Source: a virus (Duplodnaviria; Heunggongvirae; Uroviricota; Caudoviricetes). From it: a stretch of 64,000 bases of DNA. Below the pieces are notes generated by a model that was not told where the DNA came from, searched no databases, and worked only from the letters and a program-made list of their open reading frames with translations. Positions 13,085-21,864 of this stretch are shown one piece after another. The stretch is from IMG/VR virus record IMGVR_UViG_2648501802_000002. One strand, written 5' to 3'. A program made the position numbers and the translations under genes. How positions within the stretch are numbered: position 1 is the stretch's first letter; each line of letters begins with the position of its first letter.

Positions 13085-14340
13085 ACGGCAAACATTCCCA
13101 ATTCACAGAGTCCGACCTAAACCACATGAAGCGGCTTAGGAATTACAGACTCTCCAAGGGCTAACACTGCCAGCCCGGCAGCTTTTATATTACGGGCCGC
13201 GTTAATATCACGATCATGCTCTGCGCCACATTCCGGGCAGTGCCATTTACGAATATTAAGAGGCATTTTTTGCATGGTGAAGCCGCAACTGCTGCAACGT
13301 TTGGAAGAAGGGAAATACTGGTCGATAGCGACAATGCTACGTCCACCCCATTCTCCTTTGTACTGGAGTTGGCGTACAAGTTCGCTCCAGCCTGCGTCAG
13401 CTATTGCTTTAGACAGCTTCGGGTTACGGATCATGTTTTTCACTTTAAGGGATTCGACGCAAACAACTTGGTTTTCGTTAATCAGTTTGCGGGACAACTT
13501 ATGCAGGTTATCCATCCGACAATCGACTATTCTCGCGTGGAGGCGGGCAACCTTTAAACGTGCTTTGGCGCGGTTCTTTGAGCCTTTTTGTTTCTTGCTC
13601 AATCTGCGCTGTAACACTGCTAATCGCTTCGCGTATTTAGCGTTGTGTCGAGGATTGCCAGTTTTAAAACCGGTATCGGTGACGAACAAATCTTTTAAAC
13701 CAATATCAATGCCGACCGTGGAAACGGTGATCGGCAGTGATACAGGCTCAAACTCGCAGAGACAGGATACAAAATATCGTCCGGCAGCATCCCTGGTGAT
13801 AGTGACAGTGGATGGAGCAGACGGCAACGGACGGCTCCAGCGAACATCTAACGGCTCTTTGCTCTTTGCCATGTACAGCTTGCCGTCACGGTATTTAAAT
13901 GCGCTGGCAGTTAGTTCTGCGGCCTGTTTATGCCGCTTGCTCTTAAAAACTGGGTATGCAGCACGCCCGGCGAAAAAGTTAGCAAAAGCCGTTTGTTGGT
14001 GGCGCAGAGACTGCTGGAGGGGGACGCAGGAAACGTCATTCAGCCAAGCGAATTCTGGTTCTTTTTTCAGTGCCGTTAATTTGGCGCTGGCTTGTGCATA
14101 GCCGACCCTCTCATGGCGTGCGTAGTACGCATCGGTGCGCCAGCGAAGGAGGCTGTTATAGACAAAACGCACACACCCAAAAGTCCGGGCTAATAGCTCG
14201 GTTTGTTCGGGAGTTGGATAGAATCGATATTTATAGGCACGCTTCATGTTCTATATAATACATTGAAACTAATGAGTATATAAATGAATACACGGACGAA
14301 AATGTTATCAAAGCCAATATACCAACAGACATTAGGTAAG
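13085..14340 (-). mobile_element. IS200/IS605-family insertion sequence (tnpB-only, IS1341-like); ends approximate
   Basis: Single TnpB ORF without tnpA, inserted between the prt-like and pro-like genes; element boundaries not mapped, taken as the flanking intergenic space. Confidence 0.4.
13117..14247 (-). CDS. tnpB: TnpB (IS200/IS605 OrfB) RuvC-like RNA-guided endonuclease
   Basis: 376-aa ORF; N-terminus MKRAYKYRFYPTPEQ typical of OrfB; C-terminal zinc finger CSSCGF...CPECGAEHDRDINAARNI. Confidence 0.8.
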   Translation of the reverse strand: MKRAYKYRFYPTPEQTELLARTFGCVRFVYNSLLRWRTDAYYARHERVGYAQASAKLTALKKEPEFAWLNDVSCVPLQQSLRHQQTAFANFFAGRAAYPVFKSKRHKQAAELTASAFKYRDGKLYMAKSKEPLDVRWSRPLPSAPSTVTITRDAAGRYFVSCLCEFEPVSLPITVSTVGIDIGLKDLFVTDTGFKTGNPRHNAKYAKRLAVLQRRLSKKQKGSKNRAKARLKVARLHARIVDCRMDNLHKLSRKLINENQVVCVESLKVKNMIRNPKLSKAIADAGWSELVRQLQYKGEWGGRSIVAIDQYFPSSKRCSSCGFTMQKMPLNIRKWHCPECGAEHDRDINAARNIKAAGLAVLALGESVIPKPLHVV

Positions 14341-16222: not shown

Positions 16223-16355
16223 AAAGACCTCATAAGCGAATTTTTTACGCTCCAGGACAAACACCCATTCACAGCCAATACCGACTGACTCGATCCCTTT
16301 AGAAGGCACAGGATAATGCAAATCACTTGTTAGCTACGTTTCAAAGATATACATT

Positions 16356-16372
16356 ATTGCTCTAATTAATTT
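16356..16372 (+). promoter_or_regulatory. P1 C1 repressor operator-like 17-mer upstream of ssb
   Basis: ATTGCTCTAATTAATTT, 16/17 match to the C1 operator consensus ATTGCTCTAATAAATTT as I recall it. Confidence 0.35.
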
Positions 16373-16391
16373 ATTTTATTAGGTAAGATAA

Positions 16392-16880
16392 GTGGCACAA
16401 CGCGGTGTAAACAAAGTCATCCTGATTGGTACCCTGGGGCAAGACCCGGAGATCAGGTATATACCAAATGGCGGAGCGGTCGGAAGACTCAGCATCGCAA
16501 CGAATGAATCATGGCGCGACAAGCAAACTGGCCAACAGAAAGAGCAAACAGAATGGCATAAAGTCGTTTTGTTCGGAAAACTTGCTGAAATTGCGAGTGA
16601 ATATTTACGAAAAGGTTCTCAGGTCTACATCGAAGGGAAACTTAAAACCCGTAAGTGGACAGATGACGCCGGTGTAGAACGTTACACGACGGAAATTATC
16701 GTCAGCCAGGGCGGCACCATGCAAATGATCGGCGCTCGCCGTGACGATTCACAGTCCTCAAATGGCTGGAGGCAATCAAACCAACCTCAAAACCACCAGC
16801 AATACAGCGGTGGCGGTAAACCTCAGAGCAACGCCAATAACGAACCTCCAATGGACTTTGACGACGATATTCCGTTTTGA
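16392..16880 (+). CDS. ssb: Single-stranded DNA-binding protein
   Basis: 162-aa ORF; OB-fold N-terminus ([18 protein letters not shown]...[30 protein letters not shown]), Gly/Gln-rich linker, acidic tail DFDDDIPF. Confidence 0.85.
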
Positions 16881-17077
16881 ATGTGTAAAAAACGACTGAA
16901 AGAAAAGCGGTGGTCCAAACGCCAACAAAAGCACGAACTCGCTAAAAAACGCCAAAGTTGGCAATGGCACGCGCTTTTCACGAAAAGAACACCCCGAGAT
17001 ATTGCTTTCGCTGGTGGGAAAACATTCCTGACCCACCTGAAGGCGCAATACATCAGGTTTTAAGCAGAGGAAAGACT

Positions 17078-17755
17078 ATGAATAACATGACAACGAAAGA
17101 GCTTTTGACGGCACTTCCAAAATACAAAAGCCATAAAACAGTTCGTGCCTCAAAAATCAAAGATATCGAAATTATCGCCCTAATGGATGTGGTCCTTCTT
17201 TGCAACATCGAAGTCGTTGAGCCAGAAGGGGTAAAAGTCCATGTTGATAAAATGTTTTTGCAAAAACACCGACCAGAAATTGGCGGATATCTGGTCGCTT
17301 ACGAGGACGGATCTCTGTCCTATTCACCAGAAAAAACATTTGAAGAAGGCTTTAGTCGGACTAACGACTTCTTCGAAAATGGGGTATCGCTCAGCATTGA
17401 AGGTCACAACGGGGTGACATTCATTACAGCCAAGGACGTAACTATTTCTGCTGGCGGTATCGCTACTCTACAAGAAGAAATCGACCTTGAAGCAGCCGAC
17501 TTTTCTGACGCGCTGATGTGGCTGAAGGATGGCAAGAAAGTTGCTCGACGCGGGTGGAACGGCGAAAACCAATTCTGCTGGCTGGTTCCTGAAGGACAGT
17601 ACCCGGCACGAATGGAAGCCATTAAGGGATATTTCCCCGGCGACCTCGTTCCGTATGGTGCTTATTTCGCCTTAAAAAATGCACAAGGTGTAGTTGTTCC
17701 GTGGGTTCCTTCTGTAGGCGACTTACTGGCATGTGACTGGTTTGTAGTGGAGTGA
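17078..17755 (+). CDS. Two-domain phage protein with C-terminal DUF2829-like (Tad2-like) domain
   Basis: Start at ATG 17078 with AGAGGAAAG ribosome-binding site; C-terminal segment FSDALMWLKDGKKVARRGWNG...VVVPWVPSVGDLLACDWFVV fits the DUF2829 pattern as I remember it. Confidence 0.5.
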   Translation: MNNMTTKELLTALPKYKSHKTVRASKIKDIEIIALMDVVLLCNIEVVEPEGVKVHVDKMFLQKHRPEIGGYLVAYEDGSLSYSPEKTFEEGFSRTNDFFENGVSLSIEGHNGVTFITAKDVTISAGGIATLQEEIDLEAADFSDALMWLKDGKKVARRGWNGENQFCWLVPEGQYPARMEAIKGYFPGDLVPYGAYFALKNAQGVVVPWVPSVGDLLACDWFVVE

Positions 17756-17761
17756 TTTAAC

Positions 17762-18550
17762 GTGGAAAATACTAAAGCAATTCAATACCGCCTGCGTAAT
17801 GGCCAGAGTGTCGAAGTGACCATCAATAATGATGGTGTACCTGGCGAAAAGGTTTCTATCTCTGATCTGGCTATCGAAAAAACCATCATGTGCCACCTTG
17901 GCTTTACTGAAGAAGTGAGCAAAAAGCATGGTGTAGCTATCTGGCGAACAATGGATACTGGCATGCGCAGATTCATTACCGCTCGTACCCCAGGTATGAC
18001 CATGATGGACCTCATGCAGATTGCGCCGCTGTTTGAGTGTGAACCTTTGGATGTATTCAGCAATCCAGCTATCTGCCAGCAGTTATATGGTGAGATGAAA
18101 CTCGCGGTTACCCCCATTGTGCTGCATGAAGGATCGCTTGCTGGCGTATGGAAAGTAGAGCGAATTTCAAGCTATATGCCCTTCCACATCCATGTCAACG
18201 GCGTAATCGCAGGTGAAAATCAACCTGTTTCAGTTACAAAGTCAGACCTCAAGCGCGCAATTCTTGAAGCAAGTTGTCGAGTTATCGGCCTGGGCAAACA
18301 GTCTTATGTTTTCTTCCCGGCTGGCCCTGAAGGCCCGGCAGAAATTCTGATTATGGATGCCGATCTGCTCTGGCAAATACAGTTTCTGATTGGCAAAAGC
18401 ATCATCCGCGCTGAAGAACTCGATCAGTACATTACCTGCACGATGACGGATGAAGTCAAAAGTGTGGCTATAGCCAATGCCCGGAACCTATGTCGTGCTG
18501 CATTAACAGAACTGCAAGAAAACACCACGGAAGAAGTGGAAAGCGATTAA
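17762..18550 (+). CDS. Hypothetical protein (cargo, co-oriented with DUF2829 gene)
   Basis: 262-aa ORF starting 7 nt after the previous stop; no recognisable motif. Confidence 0.4.
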   Translation: MENTKAIQYRLRNGQSVEVTINNDGVPGEKVSISDLAIEKTIMCHLGFTEEVSKKHGVAIWRTMDTGMRRFITARTPGMTMMDLMQIAPLFECEPLDVFSNPAICQQLYGEMKLAVTPIVLHEGSLAGVWKVERISSYMPFHIHVNGVIAGENQPVSVTKSDLKRAILEASCRVIGLGKQSYVFFPAGPEGPAEILIMDADLLWQIQFLIGKSIIRAEELDQYITCTMTDEVKSVAIANARNLCRAALTELQENTTEEVESD

Positions 18551-18552
18551 AA

Positions 18553-18580
18553 AAATCCCGCCGATTGGCGGGATTTCTTC
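18553..18580. terminator. Candidate bidirectional intrinsic terminator
   Basis: AAATCCCGCC-GATT-GGCGGGATTT hairpin flanked by A-run and T-rich sequence, between convergent ORFs. Confidence 0.45.
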
Positions 18581-18887
18581 AATATACGATCTGGTCTACA
18601 TGATCACCAAAATCATCGTCGTCGTCCTCATCGCCACCATCTACTGCTGGCCAATCAACAAACCAGCCAGCGTAAAGATGCAGCGTTCGGAGAACATCAC
18701 TTGCGGGAGCATCAAGGGTGTTAACGAATCCCATATAGCTATTGGGATTTGCTCCAGCTATGGCTTCAGCGATCATGTCCTCGGTAATGTCACCGGAGAT
18801 AATGCTTAAACGCCCGGAAACTTCTTCATTATCATCAAATTCGATAATGGCATCTCCGCCTAATGGCGCTGCGATTTTAATCTGCAT
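18579..18887 (-). CDS. Small acidic hypothetical protein
   Basis: 102-aa ORF, strongly acidic C-terminal region (DGGDEDDDDDFGD); last gene downstream of ddrB-like. Confidence 0.35.
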   Translation of the reverse strand: MQIKIAAPLGGDAIIEFDDNEEVSGRLSIISGDITEDMIAEAIAGANPNSYMGFVNTLDAPASDVLRTLHLYAGWFVDWPAVDGGDEDDDDDFGDHVDQIVY

Positions 18888-21864
18888 TATTTAGCTCCTT
18901 TGCCACACCTAATAACAGTTCCAGCAATCCGTCACCATTCATCAGTGATGCGGCAGCGGCCTCTTTGTCATGATACAACTGAAGAGCCATAGAGAACACT
19001 TCCGTTGCTGACGTTTTGGAAATTGTCGGAGATTTGTGTCGAAATTTACCAGAATTACTCACTGAGACAGGCGGGTATACCTTCGCCATATAAATATCAC
19101 TCAATCGAGATCTGAAGCACCATTCAGGCTTGCCACGCCCACCGATATTAACGAAAGATGGCTTATCCCCTTCAACATTGGCCTTCAGGAATGACCTGGC
19201 TTTCTCTAACAAACCCGGGTTACTGTACTCAAGATGATGACCCAGCTCGTGCCACAGTGCATTTGCATTTTCATCGTGCAAATCGACAGCAACAACACCA
19301 TTAAGATTTGCATACGCCCTACCCTTGTGGTGAATTACCCTTGATAAGGTTGATATTTTCCCGCCGGTCAGGCGATAAATATCAGCAAGTTCCTTGCGCA
19401 GGTCTATTCCACCATTCTGTCCAGCGCGGGCTTCTTCCACTTCTTCCGTGATAAAAGAGTCGGCCCACTCAAGAGCTTTTTCTTCTGATACGGATGAGTT
19501 GGTGATCGCACTGTTCATGGCAGATAACACTTTCTCGTAGACCGAATCCATACTTCGCTGATTCATTTGCCAGCGTTTCTGCGGGATATATGAAAATCGA
19601 TTGAGTAGCTGGTCAAGCTGCTCAAGTTCTTCTTCACTGACATGCTTTTTAGCCTCACCAATAATGCTGGGGAGAATAATGCCGTTAGGATTAAACGCTC
19701 GCGAAAGGAAGAGTTTCAGCGCCCCCATGCCCTCCGATGCTTCAATATCACCAATAACACGGTTAACAATGGCCGCATTCTTCGGATTAACGTCCTCCAA
19801 CGCCCTAGCTACGATTTGCAGGGACGATACGACCTCACGCTGCATATCCGTCCTGATCTCATCAATTAACTCTGGCGTTATGCCGTGCTCTTTAAGGATA
19901 TCCCGGCCTTCCGCCGTTACCCCATCGATATCACCGACATGTTTATTAACACGACTTTGCAATGCCTTAAATGCCTTCAGAATTCCACGGGCATCATCCG
20001 CTTTACTAACGGCCTTCCTGAATGCTGGCAAGAAGTCTGAGTTAACCTCATTTTGTTGATCGGCCCACTGAATGGAGGCTTCCTTCATCTCGTCCAGAGT
20101 CAGATCACCCAACGCGGTATGGTCTGTGAATATGAGCGATAACCTCTGAACCATTTCTGCCAATGGTGATACTGATTGCGCCGCGCTAAGGAATGCTTTC
20201 ACCCTGGTTGGGCGAATGGAAAACCAGTCAATAGCTGGTGGCATATCTCCGTTTTGTATCGCCTGCGCTATCTCATCAAAGCCGTCGCGCCCAAGGGAGG
20301 ATGCGTGATTTAACAATCCGCGAAGTAACGAATTGCTGATACCGAATAATCGGCACCATTTATTCACGTCGGCAACAGGCATTCGAACAAAATGCGCAAG
20401 CACTTGTACAAGCTGTTCATCCTGGGGATCTCTACGGGAAAGCAGCCTTATCAGATGAATAATGTCTTTGATGCCGGATGACCGATGTAATAGCAAGCTG
20501 GTATATGGAGCAACACCGTTGTAACTACCGCCGGAAACGGACTCGAAAAGACCGCCTGATATCCCTTGCATGCCTTCGTTTTCCAGTTCCTGAGACACCT
20601 GGCGAAGGATATCCTGTAACGACACATCACCACCGCCAAACATATCCCCCAGCGCCTGGCCCTGGTGCTGTAACTCATCATTGATACGTTGAGCCATCAA
20701 TTTAAAGGCGGTGGCCATACGCTTCGCGCTACGGTTATTCGCGACGATGAACAACGCGAGAGCTTTCACTTCCGGGGCTGTTTCGCTGAACATATCCCCC
20801 TGAGCAATGACATCGGTAATATGCTGGCCTGACTCCTTCGATTGCCTTACCAGGTCTACCGCATCTTTCAATGCCGCCAGCGCCTTTTTATCGAGGCTAT
20901 CCGCTGTCTCAATGCCATCAACAATAGTTGTCACAGCCTGCTTGTGCGCTTCTCCTGATAAAGCCTGCATCTGGACAAAATCATTGGCTGCCGCATTAAG
21001 CGCCGTCAGAACATTACGCATATCCGGATCAGGTTCTTCTGCAACCATCCTTACCAGGCGCGCATCCTTATATGCCTTGGCAAAGATCGCGTTTTGTATA
21101 CGGTCTACAAGTTGCCGCGTTGGTCGCCCATCTTCCGTTACAAGGCCAGCAGCCTGTGTGGCACCAACTTGCGTCATGAATCCGCGAATAAACGCGTCAT
21201 TACTGCGGCTAAGCAGATCTCCACTTTCTGACGGGTTAAACAACGCCATCATCGCCGGTGTTATGCTGTCGGCATCAACAAAAGCCTTTTCACTGGCTGC
21301 CATTTCCTGGAGATCAGAAATATTTGAGTCCTTGGCAAACTGAACACGGTCAGCCTTCGTTAACCGGCGGCGCACCAGTACCGGAGCCGTCATTGATTCA
21401 ACCTTTTCAGGCCGTATGCCGAATTCGGTCGCATGTTCAATCAGGTACTCCCGATACCGATCCGCATTACCGTCCTGATAGGCTTTAATGATCCCCATGG
21501 TCCGCCCATTACCTGACTCAACGGCATTGTCCTCACCAATTATTGGCGCGCCATGGCTGGATAAACCGGAATCGGTAAGCTGGGCAGGACGCAAATCCTT
21601 GGATATCTGGTTGACCTGAAGAAGGCTGGATGCGCGGGTCCGGTCGCGCGGCTGAAGTTCCTGGGGATAGTCTGGATTAATTTTCCCATCCAGAGTATTG
21701 GATACCAAAAGAACTGAGGCATCGACGATATCAAACGCTGTTTTTACCTCGTCTCCCTTCGCTGTCACCACATACGAAACCCGCCCGTAATCGGGCAGGT
21801 TTTTTAGCAGCTCGATCAGCGTTTCTATGCTGGTGGCCATCACCACCTGATCGCTTAAGCTCAT
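18877..21864 (-). CDS. ddrB: DdrB-like large capsid-associated antirestriction protein with HExxH motif
   Basis: 995-aa ORF; contains HELGHH (zincin-like); size and position (last large gene of the lydA operon) match my recollection of P1 DdrB. Confidence 0.5.
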   Translation of the reverse strand: MSLSDQVVMATSIETLIELLKNLPDYGRVSYVVTAKGDEVKTAFDIVDASVLLVSNTLDGKINPDYPQELQPRDRTRASSLLQVNQISKDLRPAQLTDSGLSSHGAPIIGEDNAVESGNGRTMGIIKAYQDGNADRYREYLIEHATEFGIRPEKVESMTAPVLVRRRLTKADRVQFAKDSNISDLQEMAASEKAFVDADSITPAMMALFNPSESGDLLSRSNDAFIRGFMTQVGATQAAGLVTEDGRPTRQLVDRIQNAIFAKAYKDARLVRMVAEEPDPDMRNVLTALNAAANDFVQMQALSGEAHKQAVTTIVDGIETADSLDKKALAALKDAVDLVRQSKESGQHITDVIAQGDMFSETAPEVKALALFIVANNRSAKRMATAFKLMAQRINDELQHQGQALGDMFGGGDVSLQDILRQVSQELENEGMQGISGGLFESVSGGSYNGVAPYTSLLLHRSSGIKDIIHLIRLLSRRDPQDEQLVQVLAHFVRMPVADVNKWCRLFGISNSLLRGLLNHASSLGRDGFDEIAQAIQNGDMPPAIDWFSIRPTRVKAFLSAAQSVSPLAEMVQRLSLIFTDHTALGDLTLDEMKEASIQWADQQNEVNSDFLPAFRKAVSKADDARGILKAFKALQSRVNKHVGDIDGVTAEGRDILKEHGITPELIDEIRTDMQREVVSSLQIVARALEDVNPKNAAIVNRVIGDIEASEGMGALKLFLSRAFNPNGIILPSIIGEAKKHVSEEELEQLDQLLNRFSYIPQKRWQMNQRSMDSVYEKVLSAMNSAITNSSVSEEKALEWADSFITEEVEEARAGQNGGIDLRKELADIYRLTGGKISTLSRVIHHKGRAYANLNGVVAVDLHDENANALWHELGHHLEYSNPGLLEKARSFLKANVEGDKPSFVNIGGRGKPEWCFRSRLSDIYMAKVYPPVSVSNSGKFRHKSPTISKTSATEVFSMALQLYHDKEAAAASLMNGDGLLELLLGVAKELNNAD

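Follow-up and report, generated by a model that had tools for sequence, protein, structure and literature searches.

We analysed the genes lying between ssb and ddrB in a 64,000-nt stretch of viral DNA (Caudoviricetes; IMG/VR record IMGVR_UViG_2648501802_000002), referred to below as the window. The region is collinear with P1-family phage-plasmids and ~97% identical to them. Based on the listing of open reading frames (ORFs) of the window, we confirmed that three ORFs occupy this slot, as stated by the original prediction, which had been made from the sequence alone: ORF1, a two-domain protein with a Tad2/DUF2829 domain at its C-terminus, ORF2, a homologue of the P1 protein IsaA, and the convergent ORF3, which is hxr of P1 (Table 1). 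The full 3 kb around these genes is matched by Salmonella phage SJ46, and reference P1 covers 76-77% of it. Among plasmid records, CP121349.1 comes closest; it stems from an Escherichia coli isolate of a broiler chicken, and its ORF1 is 100% identical.

Table 1. Features of the ssb-ddrB region, with positions in the window (OB, oligonucleotide/oligosaccharide-binding; pLDDT, predicted local distance difference test; pI, isoelectric point; aa, amino acids).
Feature	Position	Strand	Basis or remark
ssb promoters P2ssb/P1ssb and C1 operator Ossb (Op21, ~16356-16372)	16327..16389	+	Transferred from P1
ssb	16392..16880	+	Pfam SSB, E 6.6e-40; collinear with P1 ssb
ssb-ORF1 spacer, 197 nt	16881..17077	+	Annotated as isaA 5' end in P1 and SJ46
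ORF1, two-domain protein, 225 aa	17078..17755	+	Dec-like OB domain, linker, Tad2 domain
ORF1 N-terminal domain, aa ~10-97	17105..17368	+	Dec-like OB fold; profile, hhalign, Foldseek
ORF1 linker, aa 98-134	17369..17479	+	Beta-rich; pLDDT 41-54
ORF1 Tad2/DUF2829 domain, aa 135-225	17480..17752	+	PF11195, ModTad2 match, fold match, pocket residues
ORF2, IsaA homologue, 262 aa	17762..18550	+	phrog_2326, E 7e-151; aligns with P1 IsaA
GC-rich hairpin, 10 bp, AAATCCCGCC-GATT-GGCGGGATTT	18553..18576	.	Between convergent ORF2 and hxr stops; read from sequence
ORF3, hxr, 102 aa, pI 4.05	18579..18887	-	100/102 identical to P1 Hxr; phrog_2292
ddrB	18877..21864	-	Pfam ddrB-ParB, E 6.5e-39

The three genes had been described as unannotated, which does not hold, since public records list a DUF2829 domain-containing protein, IsaA and Hxr. 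Likewise, the 262-aa and 102-aa ORFs held to be unknown already bear names in P1, namely IsaA and Hxr; both genes are uncharacterised, so neither turned out to be a characterised P1 gene of unrelated function. The slot had also been taken for the site of the immunity, addiction and packaging genes of P1, where the P1 gene order is in fact ssb, isaA, the insertion sequence (IS) IS1 (insA/insB), isaB, hxr, ddrB. Neither IS1 nor isaB was found in the whole window, whereas a three-way DNA alignment showed that P1 lacks exactly ORF1. In P1, the ribosome-binding site and ATG of ORF1 run directly into the coding sequence of ORF2 (ATGACAGCACAAAATACTAAAACC, compared with GTGGAAAATACTAAAGCA for ORF2), and because the P1 sequence joins the ORF1 start region straight to this coding sequence, ORF2 is IsaA. 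Relative to P1, the cargo of the slot is ORF1 only.

The C-terminal domain of ORF1 is a Tad2-family domain by hidden Markov model, by its match to solved structures and by its predicted fold, which bears out the earlier assignment of the C-terminal ~90 residues to DUF2829. The Pfam profile PF11195 matched aa 142-225 over profile positions 2-73 of 73 (E 1.6e-22) and scored 80.3 bits against a gathering cutoff of 25 bits. Among PDB sequences, the best match (phmmer) was ModTad2 with histidine-ADP-ribose (His-ADPR) (9EIB; E 6e-21, ~45% identity); further matches were HgmTad2/AcrIIA7, SPO1 Tad2 and SptTad2. An AlphaFold2 (AF2) monomer model from 35 homologues reached a pLDDT of 86-92 over aa 140-225 and shows the Tad2 fold, an N-terminal helix followed by an antiparallel sheet. 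The top 24 PDB matches of this model in Foldseek were all Tad2 structures, with target-normalised template modelling scores (TM-scores) of 0.62-0.88.

In SPO1 Tad2, the founding Tad2 (Gp34.65; 8SME/8SMF/8SMG), 3' cyclic ADPR (3'cADPR) is held via W25, N26, W73 and D79, supported by S76 and T78 (10.1101/2023.05.01.538930), of which T78 hydrogen-bonds the adenine; the equivalents in HgmTad2 are W21, N22, W87, S90, T92 and D93 (10.1101/2023.11.15.567273). A HMMER alignment maps SPO1 W25, N26, W73, S76 and D79 to W160, N161, W209, S212 and D215 of ORF1, all kept, and W160, W209, S212 and D215 are invariant across the 35 homologues. Despite these five common pocket residues and a target-normalised TM-score of ~0.8, the two proteins are only ~35% identical, and SPO1 Tad2 comes from a phage of a Gram-positive host and binds 3'cADPR only. 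Two other relatives are ModTad2, encoded by a Myroides odoratus prophage (9EIB, 8V3E), and the metagenomic Tad2_68 (87 aa), the closest experimentally tested relative found (68% identity over 82 aa), which blocked Thoeris of types I and II. Both have PF11195, the length class and the WN...W..S..D pocket motif in common with the ORF1 domain and, like it, lack a long beta2-beta3 insertion; the PSV[GS]D form of the C-terminal motif is common to ORF1 and ModTad2. They differ from ORF1 in being single-domain proteins of 87-89 aa, whereas ORF1 has 134 extra N-terminal residues, and their adenine-contacting Ser/Thr is G214 in ORF1. ModTad2 sequesters His-ADPR (type II Thoeris) as well as cyclic UMP and cyclic CMP, the latter two in a second pocket. 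Taken together, the Tad2 membership, the kept pocket and the tested relative make sequestration of ADPR signals derived from Toll/interleukin-1 receptor (TIR) domains the best-supported function.

The C-terminal domain also matches the AcrIIA7/HgmTad2 structures (E ~1e-11), which would agree with an anti-CRISPR role of the DUF2829 domain, as first claimed for AcrIIA7. We regard this as highly improbable, also because, to our knowledge, E. coli has no type II CRISPR. Moreover, the Cas9 inhibition was not reproduced by Li et al., and HgmTad2 is a sponge for glycocyclic ADPR (gcADPR) and cyclic dinucleotides (10.1101/2023.11.15.567273).

ORF1 is a real gene, although its length is 225 aa and not the 226 aa first given. 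The mechanical ORF call starts at a TTG (16958-17755); the gene itself begins with an ATG at position 17078, because a GAGG lies 7 nt upstream of it and homologues begin with MNNMTTKELL or similar. A GTG at 16910, 30 nt past ssb, is the annotated start of isaA in P1 (its 5' end is L001 1111-1280, with window position = L001 position + 15799) and of the DUF2829 gene in SJ46. In the window, an in-frame TAA at 16943-16945 interrupts the frame after this GTG; therefore, translation of the N-terminal extension of the reference annotations (56 aa) is improbable. For P1 IsaA, the most likely start is the ATG of MTAQNTK, with reuse of the ribosome-binding site of ORF1. A structured RNA in the ssb-ORF1 spacer was rejected, given a non-significant folding score (z -1.26) and no Rfam match at threshold.

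With regard to expression, window positions 16290-16400 are identical at 110 of 111 nt to the P1 region carrying the annotated ssb promoters and operator. Terminator prediction gave nothing on the plus strand from ssb to the stop of ORF2, and a sigma-70 scan of 16250-18950 found no internal promoter. The hairpin beyond ORF2 is likely a bidirectional terminator; it was missed by a simple terminator scan, and it accounts for the sub-threshold Rfam 'leader' matches, under which it lies. A transcript comprising ssb, ORF1 and isaA would be released on lifting of C1 repression, and early expression from such a C1-controlled transcript would suit a sponge role.

Starting from what was directly observed, namely the domain identities, the conservation of pocket residues, the identity of promoter and operator to P1 and the gene order across relatives, we propose that ORF1 probably serves the phage as a Tad2-family sponge in counter-defence. 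Once C1 repression is lifted by infection or induction, ssb, ORF1 and isaA would be transcribed together from the C1-controlled ssb promoter. The Tad2 domain would assemble as solved Tad2 tetramers do, and its inter-protomer pockets (W160/N161 with W209/S212/D215) may bind TIR-made, ADPR-derived alarm signals, most likely His-ADPR and/or 3'cADPR, such that the Thoeris effector would never be activated. For ORF1 itself, we infer that it forms tetramers, which ligand it binds, that it is co-transcribed with its neighbours and that it acts against Thoeris.

Several points weigh against this proposal. T78, H71, D67 and T65 of SPO1 Tad2 are not kept in ORF1, where they are replaced by G214, V207, Q203 and N201, so that the ligand specificity of ORF1 cannot be read off. 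Of the sponge homologues tested, about one quarter had no inhibitory effect on any of seven systems, and the tested Tad2 proteins were mostly short and single-domain; the N-terminal domain and linker of ORF1 could alter or block tetramer formation. Co-transcription with ssb, finally, is deduced from the fact that no terminator is predicted.

ORF1 is present in SJ46, Ro157c2YLVW and D6. In PLSDB, it matched 229 plasmids, 193 of which cover at least 80% of the query, and it is a common accessory gene. RefSeq labels it as 'DUF2829 domain-containing protein', and one UniRef cluster names it 'Thoeris anti-defense Tad2 family protein'. Phage-plasmids related to P1, a model phage, are common in E. 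coli and Salmonella of clinical and livestock origin. As laboratory P1 lacks ORF1, laboratory work on P1 would therefore miss any Thoeris evasion that ORF1 confers in these wild relatives.

The extra N-terminal domain that had been proposed to be fused to DUF2829 was confirmed as a separate, well-folded unit (pLDDT ~80-93 in the AF2 model). It gave no Pfam match at E<=10 and corresponded to no NCBIfam family. A profile of 20 sequences of this domain found one solved protein in the PDB, Dec of phage L, which has an OB fold (6E3C; hmmsearch, E 1.6e-4); hhalign aligned the domain with Dec over 81 columns (94.6% probability, E 7e-8), and in Foldseek Dec ranked right after the Tad2 matches (E 1.2e-3, probability 1.0). 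The N-terminal domain is homologous to the OB domain of Dec (Dec residues 12-89), and both carry the motif GGYL...G.L.Y...AFE..Y. In contrast, the YKCHK/KH.P motif kept in the wider family of this domain is missing from Dec.

A profile search recovered 232 proteins of this family, which are mostly stand-alone, have a median length of 94 aa and lie on phage-like contigs. The family motif reads P.YKCHK.V.A.KI ... KH.P..GGY.V.Y.DGY.SFSPA.AFE.GY, and across 119 sequences the positions Y16, H19, K20, K26, K63, H64, Y71, Y75, D77, S81, S83 and E89 are near-invariant; in the copy of the window, three near-invariant residues are changed (C18S, Y79S, Y92F). Both in phages (LASTA, Dolphis, YL4) and on metagenomic contigs, members lie mostly among early or small accessory genes, and one adjoins terminase genes. 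In unrelated phages, longer proteins of the early region carry the family at their N-terminus, such as gp52 of Klebsiella phage LASTA (L012 3495-4370), and likewise gp96 of Pseudomonas phage Dolphis (L013 3495-3989), which is labelled 'capsid decoration protein'; this label may be a transfer from Dec based on similarity.

Given its homology to the Dec OB fold, the N-terminal domain could be a structural module that binds capsids or mediates oligomerisation, thereby localising or stabilising the Tad2 domain instead of binding a signal. The beta-rich segment following the OB domain, not confidently folded in the monomer model, resembles the arrangement in Dec, and the Dolphis annotation as a capsid decoration protein would fit as well, if it was not itself derived from Dec. 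We consider this reading unlikely: Dec is a late protein, a trimer that binds the capsid and bears a beta-helix spike, whereas ORF1 lies in the early ssb operon and not in a head module, has no recognisable spike, and belongs to a family found among early genes. The P1 virion proteome lists no product of the slot, though reference P1 lacks ORF1 (PMC9024508). The linker was also considered as a Dec-like spike and rejected, as aa 98-134 have no similarity to the Dec C-terminus. The features of Dec-like decoration proteins as a functional class were likewise not found, as spike similarity is missing and the gene lies in the C1-controlled ssb operon in place of a late or structural context.

The domain was further compared with described sponges. 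Acb4 was rejected, since there was no PF13876 match at E<=10, a profile comparison with SPO1 Acb4 (9E4W) gave no match at E<=10 either, and 9E4W was not among the 50 Foldseek matches listed for ORF1. Sequestin-fused proteins in the tables of Tal et al. that carry a similar GYLV...SWSP...FE..Y motif were not PF13876 members either. ORF1 had no PF21825 match, which excludes Sequestin, and Lockin was rejected on sequence, as LockinA is unrelated; of three motifs of the domain, two were not found in the tables of the Lockin paper, and GGYLV was found once, in the N-terminal part of a Sequestin fusion.

Fusions to known sponges would agree with a further reading of this domain, namely that it is a second signal-binding module from an unnamed sponge family, and that ORF1 would neutralise two kinds of immune signal. 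Among the 120 matches listed of the 232, eight have Sequestin (PF21825) as their C-terminal domain and one (P0264) has an Acb2/Tad1 hairpin (PF24729, above the gathering score), and three relatives (P0099, P0109, P0114) combine the domain with both Tad2 and Sequestin. Sequestin itself was discovered through its fusion to known sponges (10.1101/2025.07.12.664507). The mostly stand-alone occurrence on phage-like contigs, the length typical of sponges and the location outside head modules, among early or small accessory genes, point in the same direction, and a conserved binding site is suggested by the near-invariant residues, which are polar and aromatic. Precedent exists in the published Acb4-Tad2 fusion of Pasteurella phage Pm86, which blocks both Thoeris and the cyclic-oligonucleotide-based antiphage signalling system (CBASS) (10.1101/2025.07.12.664507), and in Tad2-Sequestin (PF21825). 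As in ORF1, Tad2 is joined there to a second small phage domain; unlike in these fusions, the partner in ORF1 is neither Acb4 nor Sequestin and is instead a Dec-like OB domain. We hold the dual function to be possible but the less probable case, as Dec, the only characterised relative, binds capsids and not nucleotides (PMC6449081), the P1-like copy has lost the near-invariant residues C18, Y79 and Y92, and scaffolds can be fusion partners, too. The domain also lies outside the seven sponge families named as of April 2026, i.e. Tad1, Tad2, Acb2, Acb4, Sequestin, Lockin and TadIV-1 (PMC13243611). In the neighbourhoods examined, no known sponge genes adjoined stand-alone genes of the family.

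Judged by its sequence, ORF1 is best placed in the known Tad2 sponge family, with a fusion partner not described before. This partner represents an unnamed candidate family and is the sole part of the locus with real discovery potential. It is also the more useful lead, being small, strongly conserved, widespread in phages and fused to three sponge families; as the fusion evidence is of the same kind as that for Sequestin, existing assay panels would allow a direct test of the domain.

The linker between the two domains consists of low-confidence beta strands in the AF2 model, and its sequence differs between alleles. Other P1-like and D6-like elements carry the same Tad2 domain after a kept EIDLEAADFSDAL junction with different partners: a dUTPase, other N-terminal modules, or Sequestin downstream. 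Tad2-Sequestin and dUTPase-Tad2 fusions also occur among the P1-like relatives of ORF1. Mosaic Tad2 alleles with N- or C-terminal partners swapped at the EIDLEAADF junction were seen in P0024, P0034, P0056, P0061 and P0073 and at L011 4064-4978. Plasmid Tad2 alleles vary in the beta2-beta3 insertion, which forms the second ligand pocket in HgmTad2 and ModTad2, and one allele group has WK for WN; the differences between alleles fall exactly where ligand specificity is set in solved Tad2 proteins. Tentatively, the N-terminal domain might represent an unrecognised sponge family of ~90-aa OB modules related to Dec, with the P1-like protein as a two-headed sponge whose alleles swap OB, dUTPase and Sequestin heads.

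Directly downstream of ORF1, ORF2 starts with a GTG (ATG at the same position in SJ46) 6 nt past the ORF1 stop, and its Shine-Dalgarno sequence GGAG, 9 nt upstream, lies inside the ORF1 3' end. It is 96-98% identical to IsaA cluster representatives, syntenic with P1 isaA and aligns outside the annotated N-terminal extension of P1 IsaA. IsaA relatives are rare (30 among 1.84 billion representatives), and no informative fold match was found for IsaA. In P1, isaA, isaB and hxr are non-essential by CRISPR interference (PMC10695390), and their products do not appear in the P1 virion proteome table (PMC9024508).

This tight spacing of ORF1 and ORF2 would fit the original prediction, in which a single counter-defence module of several proteins is made up of ORF1, IsaA and, possibly, Hxr. 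A Tad2-like gene followed by isaA also recurs in D6 itself and D6-like contigs, at another, cre-proximal locus alongside cre and phd/doc (IsaA only 41-49% identical), including one dUTPase-Tad2 fusion. This recurrent order is a real but weak linkage signal. It is the sole link to the neighbours, and there is no evidence of a mechanistic tie. As P1 carries IsaA and Hxr without ORF1, they are not obligate partners. In addition, isaA (406 plasmid matches in PLSDB) and the hxr/ddrB segment (483) are more frequent than ORF1, remoter IsaA homologues follow a cre-like integrase without a Tad2 gene, phages encode two-domain Tad2 proteins for which the genomic regions examined show no IsaA annotation nearby, Hxr lies on the opposite strand inside the ddrB unit, and the uninformative fold search for IsaA adds nothing in favour. 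We therefore find a joint module improbable; what stands of the proposed counter-defence or sequestering module is the role of ORF1, for which it is the best reading, and not the neighbours as partners.

The D6-like cassette of dUTPase, Tad2-like and IsaA-like genes adjoins cre and phd/doc and not ssb (L003 2085-3817 in phage D6, L004, L006 3808-5807). Window positions 17434-17804 are 97% identical to D6, which suggests recent cassette exchange between P1-like and D6-like phages. In one D6-like contig, an additional ORF of 368 aa (L006 5788-6894) separates the isaA-like gene from doc/phd; it matched no domain.

The predicted convergent, acidic 102-aa protein was recovered on the minus strand as Hxr. 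Its gene, which overlaps the ddrB stop by 11 nt, comes last in the antirestriction ddrB transcription unit and forms part of the convergent dar/ddrB operon, outside the ORF1 unit. The P1 annotation describes it as a possible Xre-like repressor. We found no Pfam domain at E<=1, no NCBIfam family and no helix-turn-helix in Hxr, which has 23 acidic and 3 basic residues and a DEDDDDD tail. Given the missing helix-turn-helix and the extreme acidity, the repressor label fits poorly, and an acidic Dar accessory protein or a DNA mimic seems no less plausible than a repressor.

Further upstream, the window contains a TnpB-like ORF of 376 aa on the minus strand (13117-14247), with Pfam matches to HTH_OrfB_IS605, OrfB_IS605 and a Cas12f1-like TNB domain. 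It indicates that an IS200/IS605-family element has inserted upstream of the lysis/ssb region.

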